DNA of 64,000 bases, from assembly GCA_964362865.1 (NCBI GenBank), contig CAYIGD010000002.1:4253-68252 (forward strand). Direction: 5' to 3'. Position 1 is the first letter of the stretch; each line of letters begins with the position of its first letter. The position numbers were made by a program, and so were the translations under genes. Shown piece by piece: positions 38 to 44,856 of this stretch. The notes under the pieces are model-generated. The model saw only the letters and a list, made by a program, of their open reading frames with translations, searched no databases and had not been told where the DNA came from. This DNA is from an uncultured Candidatus Saccharibacteria bacterium (GTDB lineage: Bacteria > Patescibacteriota > UBA1384 > JAGVHQ01).

Positions 38-2026
38 ATGGTACATGCGCGCCTCTACTTTATCGCAGTGTGCATCCTTGCCGTACTGGCGTTATTTGCC
101 TATCTGATATTGTGGCGCCCGATAATTTTCACCAGCAACGTGATTATTGACGGGGACTACTCCGTTGGCCGCCGGGCAGTTGTGATGAAAGGCGGGGCAA
201 CGCTGACAGTTAAAGGCAGCTTGACGGTGAATGGGTACCTTGGTTGCAAAGACGGGGGATTAGAGGTAACCGTTGTCGGCGATTTTGTGCTCAACGATAC
301 AATCGCCTGCCAACGTGTTGTATCAGATGACGCAAGTGCCATTGCTCCCCAAGGGGTGGCCCTTGTCGTCGGCGGATCAGCAGAGTTTCAAAGTAATTCA
401 GTGGTAGCAAGTAACGGCCATGTTCAAATTGTACCCACGGCTGAGGATCTTTTAACCGAACAAGAACTTGATCAAGCATTCGACGAGATCGGTGAAGATT
501 CAGGTGATGAACCTCGGATTGGGCCTCTCGGTTCACTGGGTAAGGATAGCGTACCTGACCAAGGGACGCAGACGCGCTCGAAACCGGTCAGTACATTGAA
601 TCATTTGCCAACTCAAATTCTTCCCGGAAAATCCTCGCTGATTGCACGCGTGCGAGCGCAGGGTCCGATCCAGCGGATCCTCATCGGCGGCACGTTGTAT
701 GTTGGTTCGAGGGACAAGCCGCTCCCGAAATGGATTGACGTGAAAAAACTCCCCAAGAAAGTAAAACGGGTTGTCGTGCGGGCGTATTTCCCCAATGGGG
801 ATGTCGAGTTTAGGGACAAGAGCGTGATCCTTTCACCAGATGGGCAAGACGGCCCTGATATCACAGGTGGATGCGACATCAATGTCCCTAAGCAAGAGAG
901 TGAAGCCGATAGAAAGGCACGCGACGCGATGCGCATGCGGGTGATGGCTCGCAACATTACGATTGGGGAGCTCGATTTGTATTTAGGTGATGGTGGACGG
1001 GGCGGGAACGCAACTACCGATCCAGATTGCGACCCGATCGGTAAAGCGATTGCTGGGCACGGTGGCCAATCAGGCAATTTCAAGATGAATACTGCCACTG
1101 GTGGGGCGCTCAAGATTCGAGGTCCGTTTCGAATTCATCCCGGCGTATCAGGCGCTGGCGGGGCTGCGACCGCGTACGGTAGAGATGGCAAAAACGGTGA
1201 AATCGGTGAAAACGGAAAAGCGGCCATAGCCGCCGGGGGGAATGGCGCGGATAACATCAAGGCTTTACGCGCGCGCGGCATAGCTGATTTACAAAATATT
1301 TACATTGATTCCCTCATTGCTGGTGACGGCGGAGACGGCATCGCGAGCCCGGGCGACGGCGGGGACAGTTCCAAATGTGATACGAAAGGCGGATTGCCCG
1401 GTGCGGGCGGCGCAAGCGGAGGGGCAGGTGGAACAGCGCGGCTTGATTACCCACTTCAGGTACGCGACATTCCCAGTGCGGTTGATCAAGATGGCTTGGA
1501 CGGAAATCCAATCATAGACGACGCAAACCCGGGAGCAGATGGTCCCCCCTGTGCGGGTGGGGATGGGAGAGTTCCAGATAAGACAAGCGTAACAGAGCCA
1601 ACAAAGACACCATCCAAAACCGATGGCGGATCCTCGTCAGGAAATGATGCTGTAAAAACGCCCACTCCAGCGCCGACCCCACCAACGCCGACCGTAGTCA
1701 AAGCCCTGGGCAAATTTGAGTTTCTTGATTCGCAATTCCAGCCGATAATTAATCTCCCAACCAGCTCACAGGTAGCGGTCCATATTATTGTTGCCAGTAC
1801 CGGTGGGAACCCCGATATCCGCCTCTACTTGCCGATTACGCTCGAGCTAAAGTCGGACGGCCAAGTTGTCTGGACTGGCACGATCGCCAATGACCCTGTC
1901 CTGAATTGTCGCGGCGCCGATGGCTGTAGTATGGATGGGCCAACAATCAGTGCGGCTTGGATAAAGAAACAATTGAAAGCGACCGGCAAAAACGGGGAGA
2001 TCCTCGCCACGTATTCCGAGCAGTAA
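38..2026 (+). CDS. Hypothetical membrane-anchored surface protein with beta-helix-like repeats, Gly/Asp-rich collagen-like runs, a Pro/Thr linker and a C-terminal domain
   Basis: 662 aa ORF with an N-terminal hydrophobic helix (LYFIAVCILAVLALFAYLILW). Repeats such as TVKGSLTVNGYLGCKDGGLEVTVVGDF are followed by Gly-X-Y-like runs (GKNGEIGENGKA, GDGGDGIASPGDGGDSS, GLPGAGGASGGAGGTA), a TPTPAPTPPTPT linker and a C-terminal domain of about 100 aa. I recognise no family. Confidence 0.6.
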   Translation: MVHARLYFIAVCILAVLALFAYLILWRPIIFTSNVIIDGDYSVGRRAVVMKGGATLTVKGSLTVNGYLGCKDGGLEVTVVGDFVLNDTIACQRVVSDDASAIAPQGVALVVGGSAEFQSNSVVASNGHVQIVPTAEDLLTEQELDQAFDEIGEDSGDEPRIGPLGSLGKDSVPDQGTQTRSKPVSTLNHLPTQILPGKSSLIARVRAQGPIQRILIGGTLYVGSRDKPLPKWIDVKKLPKKVKRVVVRAYFPNGDVEFRDKSVILSPDGQDGPDITGGCDINVPKQESEADRKARDAMRMRVMARNITIGELDLYLGDGGRGGNATTDPDCDPIGKAIAGHGGQSGNFKMNTATGGALKIRGPFRIHPGVSGAGGAATAYGRDGKNGEIGENGKAAIAAGGNGADNIKALRARGIADLQNIYIDSLIAGDGGDGIASPGDGGDSSKCDTKGGLPGAGGASGGAGGTARLDYPLQVRDIPSAVDQDGLDGNPIIDDANPGADGPPCAGGDGRVPDKTSVTEPTKTPSKTDGGSSSGNDAVKTPTPAPTPPTPTVVKALGKFEFLDSQFQPIINLPTSSQVAVHIIVASTGGNPDIRLYLPITLELKSDGQVVWTGTIANDPVLNCRGADGCSMDGPTISAAWIKKQLKATGKNGEILATYSEQ

Positions 2027-5558: not shown

Positions 5559-5738
5559 ATGGCAATGCCAAAGAAGCAGATGACCCGGACGCGGTCCGGC
5601 GGTCGCCGCAGCCAAATCCGGCTGCTCGCCCCAGCTCTTACAACGTGTCCCAACTGCCGCAGCGCGATGTACCCGCACCGCGTATGCACGAGGTGTGGCA
5701 TGTACCGCGGGAGAGTTGTGCTTAAGAAACAAAAATGA
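5559..5738 (+). CDS. rpmF: 50S ribosomal protein L32
   Basis: Manual translation in a frame other than the listed 5537..5725 ORF gives MAMPKKQMTRTRSGGRRSQIRLLAPALTTCPNCRSAMYPHRVCTRCGMYRGRVVLKKQK. This has the L32 N-terminal motif and a CxxC..CxxC zinc knuckle, and an AAGGAGAA RBS precedes it. Its stop overlaps the nusB start (ATGA). Confidence 0.85.
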   Translation: MAMPKKQMTRTRSGGRRSQIRLLAPALTTCPNCRSAMYPHRVCTRCGMYRGRVVLKKQK

Positions 5739-6178
5739 ACCGGCATCTTTCGCGCATGATCCTTATGCAGTCGCTCTACGAATGGGATGTGCGACCGAGC
5801 GAAAAACTGGATGAAATAATTGAACGCAACATCGCTCAATACGACGCAGAGGTTGATTTGGATTTCATCAATTCGCTTAAGCTTGGAATCCAAAAAGATC
5901 ATGATAAAATTGATGCCCTATTGATGAAAGCCGCGCCAGAATGGCCGATTGATCAAGTAGCGGTGATTGATAAGGTTATCCTGAGGATTTCGATTTACGA
6001 GCTTTTGTTTGACAACCAAGTTCCTGCAAAGGTTGCAATCAATGAAGCCGTGGAACTGGCGAAATCATTTGGGGGGGAGAACTCATCGAAATTTGTAAAT
6101 GGTGTGCTCGGGACACTCTATCGTGAAAGTGATCGCTTCGTTGCGGAGGATGATGTTAAAGACCGAGCTACTAACTAA
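5735..6178 (+). CDS. nusB: Transcription antitermination factor NusB
   Basis: MQSLYEWDV... and KVAINEAVELAKSFGGENSSKFVNGVLG match the NusB family consensus. Confidence 0.85.
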   Translation: MNRHLSRMILMQSLYEWDVRPSEKLDEIIERNIAQYDAEVDLDFINSLKLGIQKDHDKIDALLMKAAPEWPIDQVAVIDKVILRISIYELLFDNQVPAKVAINEAVELAKSFGGENSSKFVNGVLGTLYRESDRFVAEDDVKDRATN

Positions 6179-6860
6179 AATCGAACCGTTTCAAAAAAAG
6201 ATTCGGCACGCGTTCCGCGATCCAATGCTTTTGCTGCAGGTATTTTTACATCGTTCGTATCTGAATGAGCATCGTGATTTTCAACTTGAGCATAACGAAC
6301 GACTCGAGTTTTTAGGGGATGCCGTTTTGGAGCTGATTGTAACTGAACACCTGTATCTTACATACCCTAATCCTGAGGGTGAGCTTACTAACTGGAGAAG
6401 CGCTTTGGTAAAAGGCGAAACTCTTTCGGAAGTTGCGCGCGAGCTTGGGATCGAAGAATACCTCCTACTTTCAAAGGGAGAATCCAAGAGCCATGGTAAG
6501 GCACGGCAACTCATATTAGCCAACGCGTTTGAAGCATTGGTAGGGGCGCTTTATTTGGACGCGGGATTTAAAGGAACAAAAAGCTTCATCAAGCGCGTAT
6601 TGATCGTGCGCCTGGAAGAAATCTTCTCAAAGCAGCTTTATATTGACCCCAAAAGTAAATTACAAGAATTAATGCAAGAATTGCGCGGTCAGACTCCACT
6701 GTATCGCGTCTTAAAAGAAATCGGGCCGGATCATAATAAAGTATTTACTGTCGGCGTGTATGTTAAGCGTGAATTACTTGGAAAAGGTGAAGGTGCTTCA
6801 AAGAATAAAGCGCAGCAAGCAGCGGCAAAAATAGCACTTGATAACTTTGAACGCAATTAG
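6150..6860 (+). CDS. rnc: Ribonuclease III
   Basis: RNase III signature ERLEFLGDAVLEL plus a C-terminal dsRBD (KSKLQELMQE...GEGASKNKAQQAAAKIAL). The start is placed at an internal ATG (6150/6153) because the longer ORF overlaps nusB. Confidence 0.9.
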   Translation: MMLKTELLTKIEPFQKKIRHAFRDPMLLLQVFLHRSYLNEHRDFQLEHNERLEFLGDAVLELIVTEHLYLTYPNPEGELTNWRSALVKGETLSEVARELGIEEYLLLSKGESKSHGKARQLILANAFEALVGALYLDAGFKGTKSFIKRVLIVRLEEIFSKQLYIDPKSKLQELMQELRGQTPLYRVLKEIGPDHNKVFTVGVYVKRELLGKGEGASKNKAQQAAAKIALDNFERN

Positions 6861-7567
6861 CTCCCTCGCGCAAGTGGGCGGAGTTTTTCGTAGAGGGCAA
6901 ATGCCTTTGTGGCCGGCCAATCTTTGGGTAAGAGTGATTCTTCAATATTGGGATTAGAACCAGTGATAAGTGCGAAATCGAAAATCAGTTCTTTCGCGCT
7001 CATTCGAGTGTTTTCAGATCCACCTTTTTTTAACAGAGTCCCAGCGGCACGATTAAAGCGATTGTAACGGCTTGCAAGTTTCTTTATGTTCCATACTCGG
7101 GCAATGATTGTGGGCTGCACGTCCCATTTTGAGACTGATAAAATATGAATTCGGTGGGAAAGATTATGTTTGAGCGCAAATTGTTCAATTTTTTCGGTAT
7201 TGCCGATTGTTGAAATCCAAACGCTCGGTTGTAATGTTCCGTATCCAAGATGAGTAAGGAGTGCGCGTAACTGGGCCCGGAGTCCACGGCGTTTTTCCGG
7301 GATGTCAAACATTACGAATGTCCAGTGATCACTGATGGGTTTATCCCGTAATTGGCTTAACGTTGAATCAATGAATTGTTGACCTGCAGGTGTGAGTACA
7401 TATTTTTTTTGGTTCGTTTCAACAGTTTTTTTTACCCACCCCCTCTTCTCAAGCTGCCCGAGCGCACCGTATATCTTGCGAGAAGGCGCAAGGCGTGTGA
7501 GTTCGATCTCCACCATTGCCTTTGCGTCTTCAAGGTGGATTAAGATTTCATACGTTAAATTAAGCAT
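6857..7567 (-). CDS. PaaX-like transcriptional regulator (N-terminal winged HTH plus Cas2-fold middle domain)
   Basis: The N-terminus looks like a wHTH (ILIHLEDAKAMVEIELTRLAPSRKIYGALGQLEKRGW). The middle segment FVMFDIPEKRRGLRAQLRALLTHLGYGTLQPSVWIS matches the PaaX/Cas2-like pattern. Its stop is convergent with and overlaps the rnc stop. Confidence 0.5.
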   Translation of the reverse strand: MLNLTYEILIHLEDAKAMVEIELTRLAPSRKIYGALGQLEKRGWVKKTVETNQKKYVLTPAGQQFIDSTLSQLRDKPISDHWTFVMFDIPEKRRGLRAQLRALLTHLGYGTLQPSVWISTIGNTEKIEQFALKHNLSHRIHILSVSKWDVQPTIIARVWNIKKLASRYNRFNRAAGTLLKKGGSENTRMSAKELIFDFALITGSNPNIEESLLPKDWPATKAFALYEKLRPLARGS

Positions 7568-7603
7568 AGCCCAACACTATATGCTTAATGGACGCCCGTC
7601 AAG

Positions 7604-8413
7604 TTAGTTCTGCAATATTCCTTGGCGTAGCAACTGGTTCAATAACAAAGAAGTTTGTTGGAAGCGTTCTGCCTGGGTGGGTGTGCCCATCACAAGGGTA
7701 ATGATCGCAGGATCTGATTCGGTAAGGCCGAGCAAGTGAGCTCCAGTTTCAGGTAAATAGCCCGTTTTTATCCCTGAAAGTCCCTTACCGAGAAGTTGAT
7801 TTGTGCTTGAGTAAACTCGATTTTCGAACGTGAATGTTTTCTGAGAGACAATTTCTTTGAGCAAGGGGTTTCGCACTACAAGAGCGCCGATTAATAGCAT
7901 ATTTTGAACAGAGCTTATGTTGTGCGGATTAAGTCCGGTTGGCTCGACGATTTCAGTTGCAGTTAAACCGAGTTGTTGCGGAAGTTCTCGAGCAGCAGAA
8001 AAATTAACGCTTCCAAGAATTGCAGCGGCGTCGTTGCCGGATGAGATGAGGGTGGCCTGCAATGCATCGGAAAACGTAATGTTTGATTTTGGTATAAACC
8101 CAATCAAGGGAGCAGGAGTTGGCAGTTCTTCTGGTACCAAAAGCTGATCTGGGTGCGAGGTGTTTTTCAAGGCGGCCAGTGCCGTGAATAATTTTGTAAG
8201 ACTTGCGATTCCGATTGCATCCTGTGAAGAAGAGATGATTTGACCGCTTTGGGGAATATATACACCCCACAGTGGAGCATCCACAGTGAGCGCCGGCTTA
8301 TTAATGATTGATTTTGAATATGAAAAGCGATTTTGAGCAGGGACTGGTTTTGCGGGGAAATTAGTAAGAAGCAGTATCAGGGTTAGGGCGGTGAGCGCAC
8401 CGATTTTTATCAT
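7604..8413 (-). CDS. Secreted D-alanyl-D-alanine carboxypeptidase (peptidase S11 / PBP5-like)
   Basis: Signal peptide, then the three PBP active-site motifs: SxxK (ASLTK), SxN (SSGND) and KTG (IKTGY). Confidence 0.7.
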   Translation of the reverse strand: MIKIGALTALTLILLLTNFPAKPVPAQNRFSYSKSIINKPALTVDAPLWGVYIPQSGQIISSSQDAIGIASLTKLFTALAALKNTSHPDQLLVPEELPTPAPLIGFIPKSNITFSDALQATLISSGNDAAAILGSVNFSAARELPQQLGLTATEIVEPTGLNPHNISSVQNMLLIGALVVRNPLLKEIVSQKTFTFENRVYSSTNQLLGKGLSGIKTGYLPETGAHLLGLTESDPAIITLVMGTPTQAERFQQTSLLLNQLLRQGILQN

Positions 8414-10599: not shown

Positions 10600-11615
10600 C
10601 TGAGTACCCCAGGAAATTGCTCCATCACAAAGCGATCGGGTGTAAGAAAGGAACGGATGTCAGTAATTTTGTATTTGATCATTGCCAGCCGCTCGACACC
10701 TACACCAAATGCAAATCCCGAAATATGAGCGGGATTATAGCCGACATTTTGAAGAACTTGGGGGTGGATCATTCCTGCTCCGAGAATCTCAAGCCAACCG
10801 GTTTGTTTACAAATCGCACACCCTTCTCCTTCGCACTGAATGCAGGCAAGATCGACCTCCAGCGACGGCTGCGTAAACGGGAAATAACTCGGTCGGAATC
10901 GCAACTTTACGGAGCGCCCGAATATCGCTTCGAGCGCCGCATGGAGTGTCCACTTCAAATTCGCCACAGTTGTCCCCTGTTGCACAACAAACCCCTCCAC
11001 TTGGTGGAAAACACTCGCATGGGTCGCATCTTCTGCTTCGTAGCGATAGACCCGCCCCGGGACAATCACCCTCAGGGGTGGTTTTGACTCTGCCATCACG
11101 CGGATTTGCATGGGAGAGGTATGTGTGCGCAAGAGTGTTCCTTTTCGACGATTAATCCAAATCGTGTCGTGCGCTTCGCGGGCAGGATGTAAAGGAGGGA
11201 TATTTAATAAATCAAAATTGTACTTCGCGGTCTCAATTTCGGTGCCTTCCAGTACTTGAAAGTTTATTTTAGTAAAAAAAGAAACAATTTCGTTAATAAT
11301 TATTCCGACAGGATGGCGATGGCCGGCTTGAGATTTTTCGCCGGGAAACGTTGGGTCAAAATAGGGAGGGGCTCCCGCATCTTTTTGTGTTATGTCTGGA
11401 ATTGAATCTAGAAGAGTCTTCGCCCGAGTTTCTCGTTCGTGCAGCGCCTTCCCGAGGTTACGCCGCTCAGTTTGAGGAAGAGCCTTTAGTTGGTGATAGG
11501 CGCGGCGTAAAAGACCTTCCTTTCCTAACAGGAGCCCTCGGGCATCTTGGGAGCGTGCCCCGTGGGTGAGAACACGATCGATTTCATTCAGCAGCGCAGG
11601 GATTGACTGTGTCAT
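10596..11615 (-). CDS. pheS: Phenylalanyl-tRNA synthetase alpha subunit
   Basis: Class II motifs HPAREAHDT, FRPSYFPFTQPS and GAGMIHPQV. Confidence 0.92.
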   Translation of the reverse strand: MTQSIPALLNEIDRVLTHGARSQDARGLLLGKEGLLRRAYHQLKALPQTERRNLGKALHERETRAKTLLDSIPDITQKDAGAPPYFDPTFPGEKSQAGHRHPVGIIINEIVSFFTKINFQVLEGTEIETAKYNFDLLNIPPLHPAREAHDTIWINRRKGTLLRTHTSPMQIRVMAESKPPLRVIVPGRVYRYEAEDATHASVFHQVEGFVVQQGTTVANLKWTLHAALEAIFGRSVKLRFRPSYFPFTQPSLEVDLACIQCEGEGCAICKQTGWLEILGAGMIHPQVLQNVGYNPAHISGFAFGVGVERLAMIKYKITDIRSFLTPDRFVMEQFPGVLR

Positions 11616-11977
11616 TTTCCACCCTGAAAAAATAGTTCAACTAAAAATAAGATACTGACCGCGAGTAATGCATTCCAGACTGTTAGAATCTGTAATGTAT
11701 TAAGAACTAAGATAAATGTAATCCCGCCACCGATCAAAAGACCAGTCCGAATTGATGGGATAATCGAGCCAAGAATCATTTCCTTGTTGGATTGCGCAAC
11801 GCGCATACGATAGACGATCAGTGTTGCCCCGGAAGAAGAAATCAAAAAAAGACTCGCGAAAAAACTACCCATTAAAAGTTGATCACTGGAATTTGGCGGA
11901 AATCCGAATACAATCAAGCTGAAAATAATAAGCGAGCCGATCAGCGCGGATCGTACTGAGGAAAGGAGCTTTTTCAT
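11612..11977 (-). CDS. Hypothetical small integral membrane protein
   Basis: 121 aa with about four predicted hydrophobic helices. Overlaps pheS and rbfA by 4 nt each, which suggests translational coupling. Confidence 0.45.
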   Translation of the reverse strand: MKKLLSSVRSALIGSLIIFSLIVFGFPPNSSDQLLMGSFFASLFLISSSGATLIVYRMRVAQSNKEMILGSIIPSIRTGLLIGGGITFILVLNTLQILTVWNALLAVSILFLVELFFQGGK

Positions 11978-16786: not shown

Positions 16787-17445
16787 CGTGCCTCTTTTTT
16801 TAAAAAAGTGTTGATTTCAGTAAGCAAAGCGCGCGTGACATCTTTAATCGGCGGGGTGCCGTCTACGCTTACTAAGCGGCCTTGTACGCGATAATGGTCA
16901 ATTACCGGAAGGGTTTGACGCCGAAAAATATCAAGCCGTTTTCGAATTGACTGTTCGGTATCGTCATGGCGAACCACAAGCGTCCCCCCGCATTTTTTGC
17001 ACTGTTCGGCAAATTCTTCGGACGAAGAAGGGGCTTTGATTGTGGCAACCAACTTGCAATTCGTGCAAATACGACGGTTTTTTATGCGTTCAAGGGAAAT
17101 TTTTTCGGGTAGCGTAATATAGACCGCGAACGGCTCCGCTCCTTTATATTTCTTCAACAGGAAGTTGAAATCGTTATACTGGCGCATATCACGCGGAAAT
17201 CCGTCAAAGACTATTCCATTAGCCTGATGGGTTTTAAAGTAATCCTCCATCAACTGGAAAATGAATCCATCCGGAATAAGCTTTCCTTGCGAAAGTATCC
17301 GTTCGATTTCTGGGTCGTGATGAGTGCGGGCAAATTCCCGCAGAACGTCTCCCGTGGAAAAAACTCGATATCCAAAATGCTTGGCGAGCTCCTTAGTTTG
17401 CGTTCCCTTCCCGCTTCCTTGCGGGCCGAATAAAGCAATGTTCAT
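16783..17445 (-). CDS. adk: Adenylate kinase
   Basis: P-loop GPQGSGKGTQ and a Zn-binding LID (CTNCK...CKKCGG). Confidence 0.93.
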   Translation of the reverse strand: MNIALFGPQGSGKGTQTKELAKHFGYRVFSTGDVLREFARTHHDPEIERILSQGKLIPDGFIFQLMEDYFKTHQANGIVFDGFPRDMRQYNDFNFLLKKYKGAEPFAVYITLPEKISLERIKNRRICTNCKLVATIKAPSSSEEFAEQCKKCGGTLVVRHDDTEQSIRKRLDIFRRQTLPVIDHYRVQGRLVSVDGTPPIKDVTRALLTEINTFLKKEAR

Positions 17446-18425
17446 TGAATGTTGAGGATGTTAGTTGCCGGCCCGAGGGTTGTGTTGTTGAGGAAAAGGG
17501 TGGTGGGTGTGTCAATTTTTGCGCGACTAATATTAAGTAGGCCAGTTGGGGTTTCGTGGGCATCGGAGAAGATCCGGTCAAACTCGCCATAGTCTTTCAA
17601 AAGCTGTCCGGTTAGGGAAAATGTCTGAACGCTTGTTTTCAGATCGGTTACTTTGAAGGATACAAGCACTCGTTCGCCCGTTACCCGTAGCGCGCGTACC
17701 GGCTGTGTAAAAGTTTTTAAAACAATCGGATCAGCAGGCGTTGTGGGAACTCGCTTCAGCAGGTATTGGGAGTTGCTGGGCGCGATATAATAGACCGCAC
17801 TTGCGTCCCCCGACCACTGGGGGAAGAGAATGCCTTCCTGTTCTTGGGCAAGTATGGAGGGTCCACTGTTGCCGAGTGAGTTTTTCATAAGATCAAATGA
17901 CGCGCCCTGCGCGTTCTGATTAAATTGAACGGTAAGATATGCGCTTCGGTCGGAAGATACACTCGGTGGTTGCACAGAAGAAACCGATTCGGCAAGCACC
18001 GTTGCCTGCGCGCTCCCTGCTTTTGGAAAGAGCACTAAGTCGACAACAGCTCCCATAAGATCCGTATTTTCTCGAGCGCGAGTTGCAATGATGGAATCGG
18101 AGCTGGAATAGACCACTTCCAAATACCCGCTCCCAGGTCCACGGGTAATGATTTGGGAGTTTTTCTGTGTTAGATTATAGGCGATCACTTCGCCGGTCGG
18201 AGCCGAGAATGCGTAAATAATCTGCTCGACGGGCGTTTTCTCTGGCTCAGGACTACTGCTCGGTGAACTCTGGTTCTCTGGTGTTGGACTCGCGTTCGAT
18301 ATAATCACGCTTGAGCTTGTTTCGCTCGTCGGCTTTGTCGTATCGGCGCGTACGACCAAATACCCGAAGCTGGCCAAGGCAAGCATGAAAATCACGGTTG
18401 AGAATGTTTTTCGTGCGCGTTTCAT
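17442..18425 (-). CDS. Hypothetical secreted protein inserted between secY and adk
   Basis: 327 aa with a signal peptide or anchor (VIFMLALASFGYLVVRA) and a Ser/Thr/Pro-rich linker, then a beta-rich domain with no motif I recognise. Its stop overlaps the adk start by 4 nt, and its start abuts the secY stop. Confidence 0.55.
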   Translation of the reverse strand: MKRARKTFSTVIFMLALASFGYLVVRADTTKPTSETSSSVIISNASPTPENQSSPSSSPEPEKTPVEQIIYAFSAPTGEVIAYNLTQKNSQIITRGPGSGYLEVVYSSSDSIIATRARENTDLMGAVVDLVLFPKAGSAQATVLAESVSSVQPPSVSSDRSAYLTVQFNQNAQGASFDLMKNSLGNSGPSILAQEQEGILFPQWSGDASAVYYIAPSNSQYLLKRVPTTPADPIVLKTFTQPVRALRVTGERVLVSFKVTDLKTSVQTFSLTGQLLKDYGEFDRIFSDAHETPTGLLNISRAKIDTPTTLFLNNTTLGPATNILNIQ

Positions 18426-19708: not shown

Positions 19709-20335
19709 TCAATTATACCCGAACAGAGTTTCGTTTACACTGGATGCGCTCTTTCTGCCAAACTCGGGAGCACGTTCGTAGCGGGGGTGTTGCGATCTAT
19801 ACGCAGTATTGAGTGCGATAATTTCAGATAGCTCTTTACGCTGCAGCTTATTTTTTGAAAACGGCGTACTCGGGTATCCCACCGCTAATAAAACAATCAC
19901 GCGCCCGCTATGGGGTATTCCGATCAGCTCGGCGATTGGTTTTTGTTTAAATCCGGCAATTTGATTAACGATTAAACCGCGCTCAAGCGCTGCGAGTGTG
20001 AACGCCATAACAGCCGCGCCTACATCGTATAAATAAAATAAGGTGTTGCCGATACGGTCGTCAAAAGCCGGATCTGACCAGACGGCAATCATAAGCGGTG
20101 CCTCTGCCCCCCATTCGTTTCCCGGATGAAGATTTTCATGAATTTTCGTGCGCACCGGTTTATCTCGGAGTATTACAAATCGCCACGGTTGTGTGTTGTG
20201 GGATGAGGGTGCCCATTGTGCGGCTTCAAAAAGTGCTTTCATGACAGATTTCAGCGGAATTCTTGTCAAAAAAAATCGTGAGCGAACCCTTTGCTTCAAA
20301 ATTGTGGGCAGCCCCAGGCGCGCTCGCACTCGCAT
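19709..20335 (-). CDS. Nitroreductase-family protein (NAD(P)H-flavin oxidoreductase-like) inserted between rplO and secY
   Basis: RVRSRFF...PLKSVMKALFEAAQWAPSSHNTQPWRFVIL is the nitroreductase N-terminal signature (RRS-R-F ... A-SS-N-QPW-F). The ATG at 20333-20335 sits 4 nt after the rplO stop. Confidence 0.7.
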   Translation of the reverse strand: MRVRARLGLPTILKQRVRSRFFLTRIPLKSVMKALFEAAQWAPSSHNTQPWRFVILRDKPVRTKIHENLHPGNEWGAEAPLMIAVWSDPAFDDRIGNTLFYLYDVGAAVMAFTLAALERGLIVNQIAGFKQKPIAELIGIPHSGRVIVLLAVGYPSTPFSKNKLQRKELSEIIALNTAYRSQHPRYERAPEFGRKSASSVNETLFGYN

Positions 20336-20339
20336 ACGT

Positions 20340-20750
20340 TTAGACCCGCTGCGCGTGCTTTTTAGTAAGTTTGATATGCTCTCCCAGTGTGAATCCGGTG
20401 GGAAGCGGTCCGCCAATCAGCTTCACTGCACTTACGCTTGTTTTAAGCAGGCCGGCTTGGCGTAATTTTTCGAGCGTAACTTGAGTAGGCTTTAATTTTT
20501 GGGTGAGCGCTTGGATCGTCACCGCAATCGGTTTTGTGCCTTGGCGCATCTGCCGCGAGAGTGAGCCGCGTTTTTTAGGGATTCTACGGATCAGGGGGGT
20601 TTGCCCGCCTTCAAACCGCGCAGATACCCTATATCGGGCTCTTTGACCTTTGGTACCTCGTCCGGCAGTTTTACCTTGCCCGGCTGCAATCCCCCGCCCG
20701 ACCCGGACCCTATTTTTTATTTGTCTTTTTGGAAGCTCGGTTAGATTCAT
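20340..20750 (-). CDS. rplO: 50S ribosomal protein L15
   Basis: [24 protein letters not shown] matches L15. Confidence 0.9.
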
Positions 20751-42814: not shown

Positions 42815-44026
42815 TTACTGAAGTTCGATCACAACGGATTGTATCGGTATTCCAACAACCGCGATGCCCGAGGGCGCCACAACGGAACGGGAAGTAAGTT
42901 CAACCGTGTAGCTACCGGGGTTTGCGTAACTTGCTAGATCAACTCGAACCCGTACGTCGCTTGCCGAAAGTGCTGTAAGCGCAGTAGCAGGGCCGCTGAC
43001 AATCACCTTAATACTTGAAGGATTCGTGCTTGCTATACGACGATTCGGGTTGAGGTTTACGGGCTCAAAATTCGCAATAATTTCCCGCTCGAGCACGATT
43101 GGCGCAAGGCTGATAGTGACCAGAACTTCAGGTTGATTGCTGTTCACTAAGCTAATTCCAGGCGGGAGATGAACGGCAAGTCTTTGCGTCAGCGATTCAC
43201 TGATCCCGTTCAGGTTGACTCTTGCCGTTTCGAGAGCGTTTGTTCCGGCCAATACGGCGGGCTCGCCTGTAACCTCTAGCGTTGATGGGTTGGTGGTGAT
43301 CGCTGTAACGACAAATCCAGGAGCAGTTCTGCCTTCGAGTGGAACTCGAATACCGACGGTTTTAGATTGCGTGCTGTCAACGATCGGGACGCGTACCTCA
43401 ACACTCGCTGGATTAAAGCTGATTGCCCCATATGGATTCCCACTCCCGTCTAAAGTCATAACAGGTACAATCCGCTCTACCTCTTCCGCTTCTCCCGCTA
43501 AAGTGATCAAGGCTGTGGCGGACTCAATTTTATCAATCAGACTTTGGGGACCGCGGGCAGTCACTACGCTGGGTTCGATGAGCGCTTGCGCGGGAATTTT
43601 TCCTTCCGCGGCGCTGCCATCGAAACGGACCCGTACCGGGATCTTTTTTTCACTTACTTTTTCGATCGTAACAAATGTTCGCTCCGGTGTTACGCGAACG
43701 ACTTGCACCCCCGCTTCTTTGCTCACGACGTTGATTTGAATTTCGTGCGTACCTTCCGCAATCCCGCGCAAATCGAGATATGCTCGAAACGAACGGGCGG
43801 TCAGTTCCCTGAGACGGATCGTTTCGGTCGAAATTGAGATTTTTACGGCTTTTACCTCAATGAGTGCCGCAAGATCAGGTTGGACATTCTCGATTTCAAC
43901 CGGAATTTCAACTGGGAATTGGCTGCGCGATATCGTACCGGACGCAATCAAAAACCAAACAATACTCGCCACAGCGATACTGATGAGCTTTAAGGGCTGA
44001 TTTTGAGTAAAACGCATCGACATCAT
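42815..44026 (-). CDS. cdaR: YbbR-domain protein (CdaR-like regulator of diadenylate cyclase)
   Basis: N-terminal TM followed by repeated YbbR-like beta domains. Lies immediately downstream of cdaA and overlaps it. Confidence 0.7.
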   Translation of the reverse strand: MMSMRFTQNQPLKLISIAVASIVWFLIASGTISRSQFPVEIPVEIENVQPDLAALIEVKAVKISISTETIRLRELTARSFRAYLDLRGIAEGTHEIQINVVSKEAGVQVVRVTPERTFVTIEKVSEKKIPVRVRFDGSAAEGKIPAQALIEPSVVTARGPQSLIDKIESATALITLAGEAEEVERIVPVMTLDGSGNPYGAISFNPASVEVRVPIVDSTQSKTVGIRVPLEGRTAPGFVVTAITTNPSTLEVTGEPAVLAGTNALETARVNLNGISESLTQRLAVHLPPGISLVNSNQPEVLVTISLAPIVLEREIIANFEPVNLNPNRRIASTNPSSIKVIVSGPATALTALSASDVRVRVDLASYANPGSYTVELTSRSVVAPSGIAVVGIPIQSVVIELQ

Positions 44027-44856
44027 CCCTCTTTCCGGTGCGCTGTATTAAACTCTCGTTTTAACAGGCGCTCTAAGCCTTTTAAATCGAGTCGGCGCAG
44101 TTGACTCCCCATTGCAACCGAAATGCTTCCTTTTGCTTCAGAAGTGACGATCACCAGCGCGTCCGTTTGCGATGATAGCCCGAGTGCTGCACGGTGACGA
44201 GTACCTAATTCGGTGTCGAAGATGGAATCCGAGAGGGGGAGTACGACGCTTGCCGCCGCGATTTGATTTCCGACCAGTACAACCGCGCCGTCGTGTAGCG
44301 GACTGTGGGGTTGGAAAATACTCATTAAAAGTTGGGCCGAAAGGCGCGCATTCAAGAGCATTCCGGATTCAATATAATCGCGTAACCCTGTCAAACGGCT
44401 TAAAACAATCAGGGAGCCGGTTTTAGTTTTTGCCAAGCGTTCCACCGCAAATAGAATCTCATGCATTACGTATTCCTGTTCCGGGGCTTTCAGGCGGGAA
44501 AAATCACCTGTAAAACGCGTTCGCCCCAGTCGTTCAAGCGCGGAGCGGATTTCGGGCTGGAATATAACGGGAATCGCGATTAAAAGCGTTGTCGCAAGGG
44601 CACGGAAAATGTAGTTTACGGCAATTAATTCAAACGCTATGCCGATAAAATAGACAATCGCAAGCAATCCGAGGCCGTATACAATTCTGAGCGCCCGCGT
44701 CTCTTTGGCCAGTAAAATTATATAGTAGATGAAGATCGAGACAATCAGGATATCGGCAATAATAATGAACGGGTCTTTGACTAAGTTAAACTGCCCGAAG
44801 AGCGTGTCAACTTTTGTCGCGGCCCCCAAAATTTTATTCGACAGTGTTTCCTGCAA
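44023..44856 (-). CDS. cdaA: Diadenylate cyclase CdaA (c-di-AMP synthase)
   Basis: Three N-terminal TM helices plus a DAC domain (TGSLIVL, HDGAVVL, GTRHRAALGLSSQTDALVIVTSEAKGSISV). Confidence 0.85.
   Translation of the reverse strand: MQETLSNKILGAATKVDTLFGQFNLVKDPFIIIADILIVSIFIYYIILLAKETRALRIVYGLGLLAIVYFIGIAFELIAVNYIFRALATTLLIAIPVIFQPEIRSALERLGRTRFTGDFSRLKAPEQEYVMHEILFAVERLAKTKTGSLIVLSRLTGLRDYIESGMLLNARLSAQLLMSIFQPHSPLHDGAVVLVGNQIAAASVVLPLSDSIFDTELGTRHRAALGLSSQTDALVIVTSEAKGSISVAMGSQLRRLDLKGLERLLKREFNTAHRKEG

Follow-up and report, generated by a model that had tools for sequence, protein, structure and literature searches.

A PaaX-superfamily regulator with a Cas2-like domain at a conserved locus of Berkelbacteria-like CPR bacteria

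Results

A regulator gene between a carboxypeptidase gene and rnc

The stretch of DNA analysed here (the window) is 64 kb long. Its minus strand carries a 236-aa ORF running from ATG to TAA, at the coordinates that an earlier note made from the sequence had given (Table 1); the minus strand is a correction to that note. An identical 236-aa protein was present on contigs from Hainich groundwater (well H51, 0.1 µm fraction), and homologues of 25–77% identity were found in many metagenomes. The ORF at 6857–7567 is a genuine gene.

Upstream of the regulator gene and in the same direction were rbfA, a gene for a 121-aa membrane protein, pheS, pheT and a Peptidase_S11 gene, each abutting or overlapping the next. 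The S11 gene overlapped pheT, and a 36-nt spacer separated it from the regulator ORF. The S11 protein, as read from its translation, has a hydrophobic N-terminus and the motifs SLTK, SGN and KTG, which are those of active PBP5-type carboxypeptidases. On the other side rnc was convergent with the regulator gene (true start likely at 6153), and the stops of the two genes overlapped by 4 nt; nusB, rpmF (5559–5738) and leuS lay past rnc. The gene thus stands at the end of a pheST-dacA co-directional block and converges on rnc with overlapping stops, just as the earlier note had described, if “dacA” is taken as the PBP5-type D,D-carboxypeptidase gene, which is distinct from the diadenylate cyclase gene at 44023–44856.

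The rest of the window contained ribosomal-protein genes, secY, adk, map, tuf, fusA, rpoBC, obg, an M23 peptidase gene, cdaA-ybbR, infB, gyrAB, glycosyltransferase genes and suf genes. No paralogue of the regulator was found in the 64 kb, and a scan of the same DNA with Rfam gave no matches.

Table 1. Positions of the regulator gene, its domains, the candidate control sequences and the adjacent genes in the window
Feature	Position	Strand	Basis or detail
PaaX-superfamily regulator gene (236 aa)	6857–7567	minus	ATG 7567–7565, stop TAA 6859–6857
Winged HTH	7352–7567	minus	DSSP of model; MarR/PadR/AspA structural matches; sub-threshold PadR/TrmB Pfam matches; AspA/MarR profile matches
PaaX_M Cas2-like ferredoxin domain (residues 77–150)	7118–7339	minus	PF20803, Cas2 models, secondary structure, conservation
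Helical PaaX_C-like domain (residues 159–230)	6878–7093	minus	PF08223; alignment to 8a39
Candidate own promoter	7574–7602	minus	-35 TTGACG (7602–7597), 17-nt spacer, -10 TAGTGT (7579–7574)
Inverted repeat ATTAAGCATA-N11-TATGCTTAAT, 10-bp, candidate operator	7559–7589		Covers -10 and start codon
Peptidase_S11, PBP5-type D,D-carboxypeptidase, upstream and co-directional	7604–8413	minus	Pfam 63.1 bits
rnc (RNase III), convergent	6099–6860	plus	ORF list; gene calls and Pfam in identical contig L001

Domain architecture and predicted structure

The earlier note had named PaaX and Cas2 profiles and a structure prediction as means of checking its reading. The Pfam model PaaX_M (PF20803), which Pfam describes as a “central Cas2-like domain”, matched residues 77–150 with 65.6 bits against a cutoff of 24, and the middle segment that the note had quoted (FVMFDIPEKRRGLRAQLRALLTHLGYGTLQPSVWIS, residues 84–119) lay inside this match. 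PaaX_C (PF08223) reached 21.5 bits against 22 at residues 159–230, and this domain superposed on that of PaaX from E. coli W (8a39). At the N-terminus winged helix-turn-helix (wHTH) models of PadR and TrmB matched, all below threshold, and the PaaX N-terminal domain (PF07848) gave no match at E ≤ 10. The NCBIfam model TIGR02277 aligned across residues 31–228 with 63.4 bits, far under its equivalog cutoff of 264.55. The term “PaaX-like” in the note is therefore right for the superfamily, by the PaaX_M match, but not for the PaaX equivalog.

Cas2 profiles also stayed under their cutoffs (TIGR01573, 23.9 bits against 24.5; PF09827, 12.7 against 23.8). Cas2 models of PADLOC matched residues 81–130 with E down to 4 × 10−6, over ~45 residues only; the other PADLOC output was weak RT_II-A and LmuC matches over the HTH region, and the neighbouring gene gave nothing. 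In its ferredoxin-like topology (beta-alpha-beta-beta-alpha-beta) the middle domain agrees with Cas2, and the sequence similarity runs over beta1-alpha1-beta2. It includes the Asp that ends beta1 (D88), the catalytic/metal-binding position of Cas2; Asp occupied this position in 91 of 152 family representatives and in 32 of the 79 short ones. Cas2 is a stand-alone protein of ~90 aa, whereas the domain of the regulator sits inside a transcription factor fold.

An AlphaFold2 model built with 40 homologues (pLDDT 92.7, pTM 0.84) comprised a wHTH (residues 1–72) with the recognition helix and wing of the MarR/PadR type, a ferredoxin-like beta-alpha-beta-beta-alpha-beta domain (82–145) and a helical bundle (152–234), and as a whole it superposed on the fold of the DNA-binding repressor PaaX. 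A search of the PDB with the single sequence gave noise only; a profile of the 42-member subfamily was needed to reach 8a39, which it matched over all three domains with E = 1 × 10−22. The model thus showed the full three-domain fold of PaaX, that is, a MarR/PadR-like wHTH, a Cas2-like ferredoxin domain and a helical PaaX_C domain. Together, the model and the fold and profile matches indicated that the earlier structural reading, an N-terminal wHTH followed by a Cas2-fold domain, had been correct.

The middle domain carried the motif F-D-I-P-E-x2-R-x2-R-x3-R, and the C-terminal domain carried W159, Y168 and a (D/N)P-x-hydrophobic-x(3)-LLPxxWP motif that is common with E. coli PaaX. Near-invariant residues of these two domains were E91, R94, R97, R101, W117, W159, Y168, K192 and P206; E91 (92%), R97 (97%), R101 (93%), Y168 and P206 were conserved at 92–97% across the family.

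Three forms of the family and the host

A word-index homologue search gave just five proteins, and the family became visible by an exhaustive profile search, which returned 4989 cluster representatives at E ≤ 1 × 10−3 and 815 at E ≤ 1 × 10−10. It comprised three forms: canonical PaaX-like proteins of about 250–300 aa; short three-domain proteins of about 230–249 aa, including the one studied here; and two-domain proteins of 165–205 aa from CPR bacteria (Daviesbacteria, Kaiserbacteria, Saccharibacteria and others; loci L015–L043), with a wHTH and a Cas2-like domain but without PaaX_C. PaaX_M was found in 42 of the 42 short three-domain members examined and PaaX_C in 39, and PF07848 in 2 of the 42. 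A profile scan of genome contigs gave one true orthologue only, plus two-domain relatives, and a scan of metagenome contigs gave no further relatives.

The nearest species representative was a Candidatus Berkelbacteria MAG (77% identity). Genes of close relatives were located on contigs of 790,634 to 867,279 bp, as is usual for CPR bacteria. The host belongs to the CPR and is Berkelbacteria-like.

Compared with PaaX of E. coli W, the regulator shared the W..Y..F and DP-LP-ELLP-W motifs of the C-terminal domain, but it was about 70–80 residues shorter (236 versus 305–316 aa) and only ~17% identical, and its N-terminal domain fitted PadR, TrmB and MarR models rather than PF07848. The PE-x2-R-x2-R-x3-R motif was absent from E. 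coli PaaX, indicating that the CPR proteins are more Cas2-like than it is. With Rv0674 of Mycobacterium tuberculosis (3kfw) and a protein of Jannaschia (3l09) the regulator shared the blocks W-x-V/I..R..LR and DP-LP-ELLP-DWP, although identity was only ~16% and the phyla are different. The Rv0674 structure was deposited as “Uncharacterized protein”; PaaX-like proteins without an assigned function are thus already in the PDB. The two-domain CPR proteins had PaaX_M scores of 73–79 bits and a near-identical core, W-R-x-V-x-FD(I/V)PEKRR-x-R-x2-LR-x2-L-x2-GF-x2-Q-x-SVW (31–49% identity over the core). Their hosts are likewise CPR bacteria, but they lack PaaX_C, and only one of them (L026) was near rnc-nusB.

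Literature searches found no paper on the CPR subfamily, and nothing relevant on a PaaX-Cas2 link, Cas2-like regulators, PF20803 or the function of Rv0674. PaaX-family labels for relatives are already public, and neither the fold nor the general mechanism is new, both having been described for PaaX.

Conserved synteny with the carboxypeptidase gene and rnc-nusB

Twelve loci encoding three-domain proteins were compared (the window, L004, L008, L014, L009, L010, L011, L012, L013, L044, L045 and L046). A Peptidase_S11 gene was immediately upstream of the regulator gene in 12/12, at 25–100% identity, and the regulator gene stood tail-to-tail with rnc-nusB in every locus that had downstream DNA. 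The pair of S11 and regulator genes was kept where asnS/aspS was inserted between pheT and the S11 gene (L011, L013) and where a PGA_cap gene stood in place of leuS (L044). Its persistence despite these changed flanks is good evidence for vertical inheritance, and the regulator was shown to be single-copy and vertically inherited.

Such synteny hints at, but does not prove, a functional connection with the carboxypeptidase or rnc; gene order in CPR genomes may be conserved through descent and not because of function. Direct regulation of the S11 gene from a promoter of its own was judged a weak candidate, since this gene lies within a long housekeeping operon, where it overlaps pheT, and no separate regulated promoter is evident for it.

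Convergence with rnc could also point to a role at the RNA level or together with RNase III and NusB, in which RNA would be bound or cleaved by the Cas2-like domain, or an antisense double-stranded RNA link would arise from the overlap with rnc. The 4-nt stop overlap was present in three loci (the window, L004 and L044), the two-domain relative L026, from a Paceibacterota genome, also adjoined rnc-nusB, and sequence similarity to Cas2 was detectable. However, convergent genes are not co-transcribed, the gap between the regulator gene and rnc varied from overlap to 73 nt, Asp at the D88 position was found in a minority of the short representatives, and the entire protein superposed on a DNA-binding repressor. 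We consider a role of this kind improbable. The remaining two-domain relatives were in varied, unrelated contexts, and the two-domain form had no S11 neighbour.

A candidate promoter and palindromes in the 36-nt spacer

On the minus strand the 36-nt spacer read TAA-c-TTGACG-GGCGTCCATTAAGCATA-TAGTGT-TGGGCT-ATG, with 6 nt from the putative -10 (TAGTGT) to the ATG of the regulator gene. The same layout, cTTGACG, 17–18 nt, TAnnnT, 6–7 nt and the start codon, recurred upstream of orthologues of 36–77% identity (seen in the window, L004, L008, L014, L009, L010, L044 and L045). For L010 and L044 the true start was a GTG upstream of the called start, placed there because the family N-terminus ML(N/T)L... 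was visible. The promoter is our own reading of the sequence; a scan with a consensus promoter did not call it upstream of the regulator gene. As read, it predicts that the regulator gene is transcribed on its own from the spacer. Its position 6–7 nt before the start codon suggests that the mRNA is probably leaderless. The more distant members L011, L012 and L046 had a leader.

Two palindromes overlapped this candidate promoter. A small one, GACGggCGTC (7600–7591), overlapped the -35. The sequence “nnCG” right after the -35 was kept in all nine closer loci, and together with the -35 it formed TGACGnnCGTCA, which was a perfect 12-bp palindrome in L045, had 5-bp arms and a 2-nt centre in L009 and had 4-bp arms in the window. 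A palindrome of 12 bp is a short target for a dimer of the PaaX type, the half-sites in E. coli being 27 bp apart (PMC9493321). The second was the 10-bp inverted repeat, whose span takes in the -10 and the start codon; it occurred once in the window, where chance would give 0.02 occurrences. Its arms were 6–7 bp in L004 and L014 and it was lost in L008, so that its conservation was weak.

TTGACGNGCGTC was not enriched in the window, and no further copies of the candidate operator motifs were found there beyond chance. For this reason no regulon is proposed.

Searches for paa genes, cas genes and the PaaX operator

In the ORFs that were scanned over the 64-kb window we found neither paa nor cas genes, and the syntenic 20 kb of L004 likewise had no paa genes; the earlier statement that neither kind lies nearby thus holds for the whole 64 kb. 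Direct-repeat families of CRISPR type (spacing ≤ 120 nt) were absent from the window. The operator of E. coli PaaX is TGATTC-N27-GAATCA (PMC9493321); no match to it was found in the window with spacers of 20–34 nt.

These results bear on the possibility that the protein is PaaX proper, with phenylacetate catabolic genes elsewhere in the genome under its control. The three-domain fold is the same, and a 75%-identical protein is named [quoted passage not shown] in the source databases. Orthology with PaaX was nevertheless rejected on the TIGR02277 score far under the cutoff, the missing PF07848 match and the lack of the E. coli-type operator in the window. Moreover, no paa genes were within 64 kb, the largest contigs with a close relative were just 0.79–0.87 Mb, and in a survey of complete genomes paaX was rarely found away from a paaK context (PMC13186573). 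The many CPR members that lack a paaK context are not covered by the picture from that survey. Control of phenylacetate genes by this protein is therefore hardly credible.

The similarity to Cas2 raised another explanation, namely a Cas2/VapD-type nuclease fused to an HTH, as a remnant of CRISPR adaptation, a toxin or a defence component. Cas2 profiles matched residues 81–130, D88 is present in the protein of the window, and some two-domain CPR relatives exceeded the Pfam CRISPR_Cas2 threshold. Against this, neither cas1, other cas genes nor a repeat array was found in the window, the PADLOC output consisted of Cas2-domain models and weak RT_II-A and LmuC matches, and D88 was not conserved in the family. 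The neighbours in every locus were pheST, the S11 gene, rnc and nusB, with neither a toxin-antitoxin or defence partner gene nor a patchy, mobile distribution; the stable vertical synteny is unlike that of mobile defence or toxin-antitoxin genes, and the full-length fold equals that of PaaX. The protein was accordingly rejected as Cas2 proper, with profiles just under the curated cutoffs and no linked cas1 or array in the window, and a nuclease of this type is very unlikely.

Discussion

We interpret the protein as a transcription factor of the PaaX superfamily from Berkelbacteria-like CPR bacteria that is not a phenylacetate regulator and that, by analogy with PaaX, would be dimeric, effector-responsive and probably autorepressing. 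The probability of this reading is put at about 0.7, and none of the four other explanations considered is favoured by the data.

In E. coli, repression of the Px promoter by its own product PaaX works through steric hindrance, and phenylacetyl-CoA releases the repressor (PMC9493321). By analogy, the regulator would dimerise through its Cas2-like domain, and the dimer would set two wHTH domains on the DNA. A small-molecule effector, bound at the middle and C-terminal part, where the near-invariant residues lie, would then release or alter the DNA-bound protein. Phenylacetyl-CoA is unlikely to be this effector. The 36-nt spacer would hold the gene's own promoter. In the manner of PaaX at Px, the protein would probably repress this promoter by occlusion, using the palindromes that cover its -35 and -10 and the start codon. 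Like PaaX, the regulator is likely a dimeric repressor with autoregulation; the window lacks both the paa context and the operator of E. coli.

An alternative is a DNA-binding protein without an effector, acting as a constitutive repressor or as an architectural or global regulator in a genome that has few transcription factors, in which the Cas2-like and C-terminal domains would serve as an oligomerisation scaffold only. It would suit a gene that is core-like, present in one copy and kept among housekeeping genes over a deep lineage, the lack of linked metabolic genes and the existence of two-domain CPR relatives without any PaaX_C domain. However, the near-invariant E91, R97, R101, W159, Y168 and P206 lie outside the wHTH and suggest a functional site rather than a scaffold alone, and the closest solved relative is effector-controlled (PMC9493321). 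We regard it as unlikely, though less so than the other three explanations.

The first candidate for a regulon beyond the regulator's own gene is the adjacent cell-wall carboxypeptidase operon. As a speculation that we think unlikely, the three-domain CPR subfamily might be a dedicated cell-wall sensor, responding to a peptidoglycan-related metabolite or one of the nucleotide/CoA type and hard-wired to the PBP5-type D,D-carboxypeptidase gene; more broadly, the abundant CPR proteins with a wHTH and a Cas2-like domain, both two- and three-domain, might form an evolutionary bridge from stand-alone Cas2 to PaaX repressors.

For annotation, the name [quoted passage not shown] on such proteins is an over-transfer, and related two-domain proteins may be miscalled Cas2. 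The practical importance is modest, and nothing points to a new kind of system. Transcription factors are very few in CPR bacteria, and hardly any of them has a known signal or target; these organisms cannot be cultured alone. Regulation in CPR bacteria could reasonably be approached through a regulator whose position has stayed fixed over a deep lineage.

Neighbouring genes in the window

The nusB-rnc segment of the window and its flanking genes were compared with three loci of a related Berkelbacteria lineage carrying orthologues of the PaaX-like regulator (L004, L008 and L014). RNase III and NusB shared 90–95% identity with their counterparts there, but the genes adjoining nusB-rnc were far more diverged: identities were 74–77% for the regulator, 66–67% for the Peptidase_S11 gene directly upstream of it, 67–72% for pheT and 70–76% for leuS. 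The high identity of nusB-rnc could reflect unusually strong constraint or recent recombination of the segment. A weak terminator-like hairpin (a 5-bp stem followed by a T-run) was found just past the rnc stop, inside the 3′-terminal part of the PaaX-like reading frame, and the convergent rnc and regulator transcripts would overlap there.

As listed in the table, a gene with a DAC domain was followed by a YbbR-domain gene, and the two are a cdaA-cdaR pair, indicating that c-di-AMP signalling is present. The label "dacA" in the earlier note applies to the Peptidase_S11 gene (a PBP5-type D,D-carboxypeptidase) and not to this diadenylate cyclase gene. A nitroreductase-family gene (235 aa) lay within the ribosomal-protein/secY cluster, an unusual insertion in a conserved block. 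Three conserved ORFs of the window (662, 327 and 121 aa) had no match in Pfam.

Features of the window and of related loci
Feature	Locus	Position	Remark
662-aa ORF	window	38–2026	window start
RNase III and NusB genes	window	5735–6860	
Terminator-like hairpin	window	6865–6888	+ strand
121-aa predicted membrane protein	window	11612–11977	between rbfA and pheS; kept in all related loci
327-aa ORF	window	17442–18425	between adk and secY; L004 counterpart likewise unannotated
Nitroreductase-family gene	window	19709–20416	between secY and rpsE
YbbR-domain gene	window	42815–44026	
Diadenylate cyclase gene	window	44023–44856	
Two-domain protein	L015	about 5800–6333	
Two-domain proteins	L018, L033, L036		
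Palindrome CACGTTCGAACGTG	L011	5937–5950	
Palindrome TCCGTACGGA	L012, L013		upstream of regulator gene

Relatives of the regulator

Two-domain wHTH + Cas2-like proteins of 165–205 aa, with the core FD(I/V)PEKRR, were widespread in CPR phyla (L015–L043); outside CPR, two MAGs of Bdellovibrionales and one of Gammaproteobacteria also carried them. The Pfam CRISPR_Cas2 threshold was passed by two of the four scanned, a third falling just below it. The surrounding genes, inspected without a profile scan, included none recognisable as cas. Such proteins are probably easily mistaken for Cas2 in annotation.

The called starts of two regulator homologues, P0005 and P0016, were too far downstream (sites at L010 493–516 and L044 880–882). 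Upstream GTG starts, 6–7 nt past a -10 box, gave back the family N-terminus ML(N/T)L... in both. Near the promoters of more distant orthologues, CG-rich palindromes were found that differed from those of the closer loci, suggesting, from few sequences, that the candidate operators may co-vary with the recognition helix.
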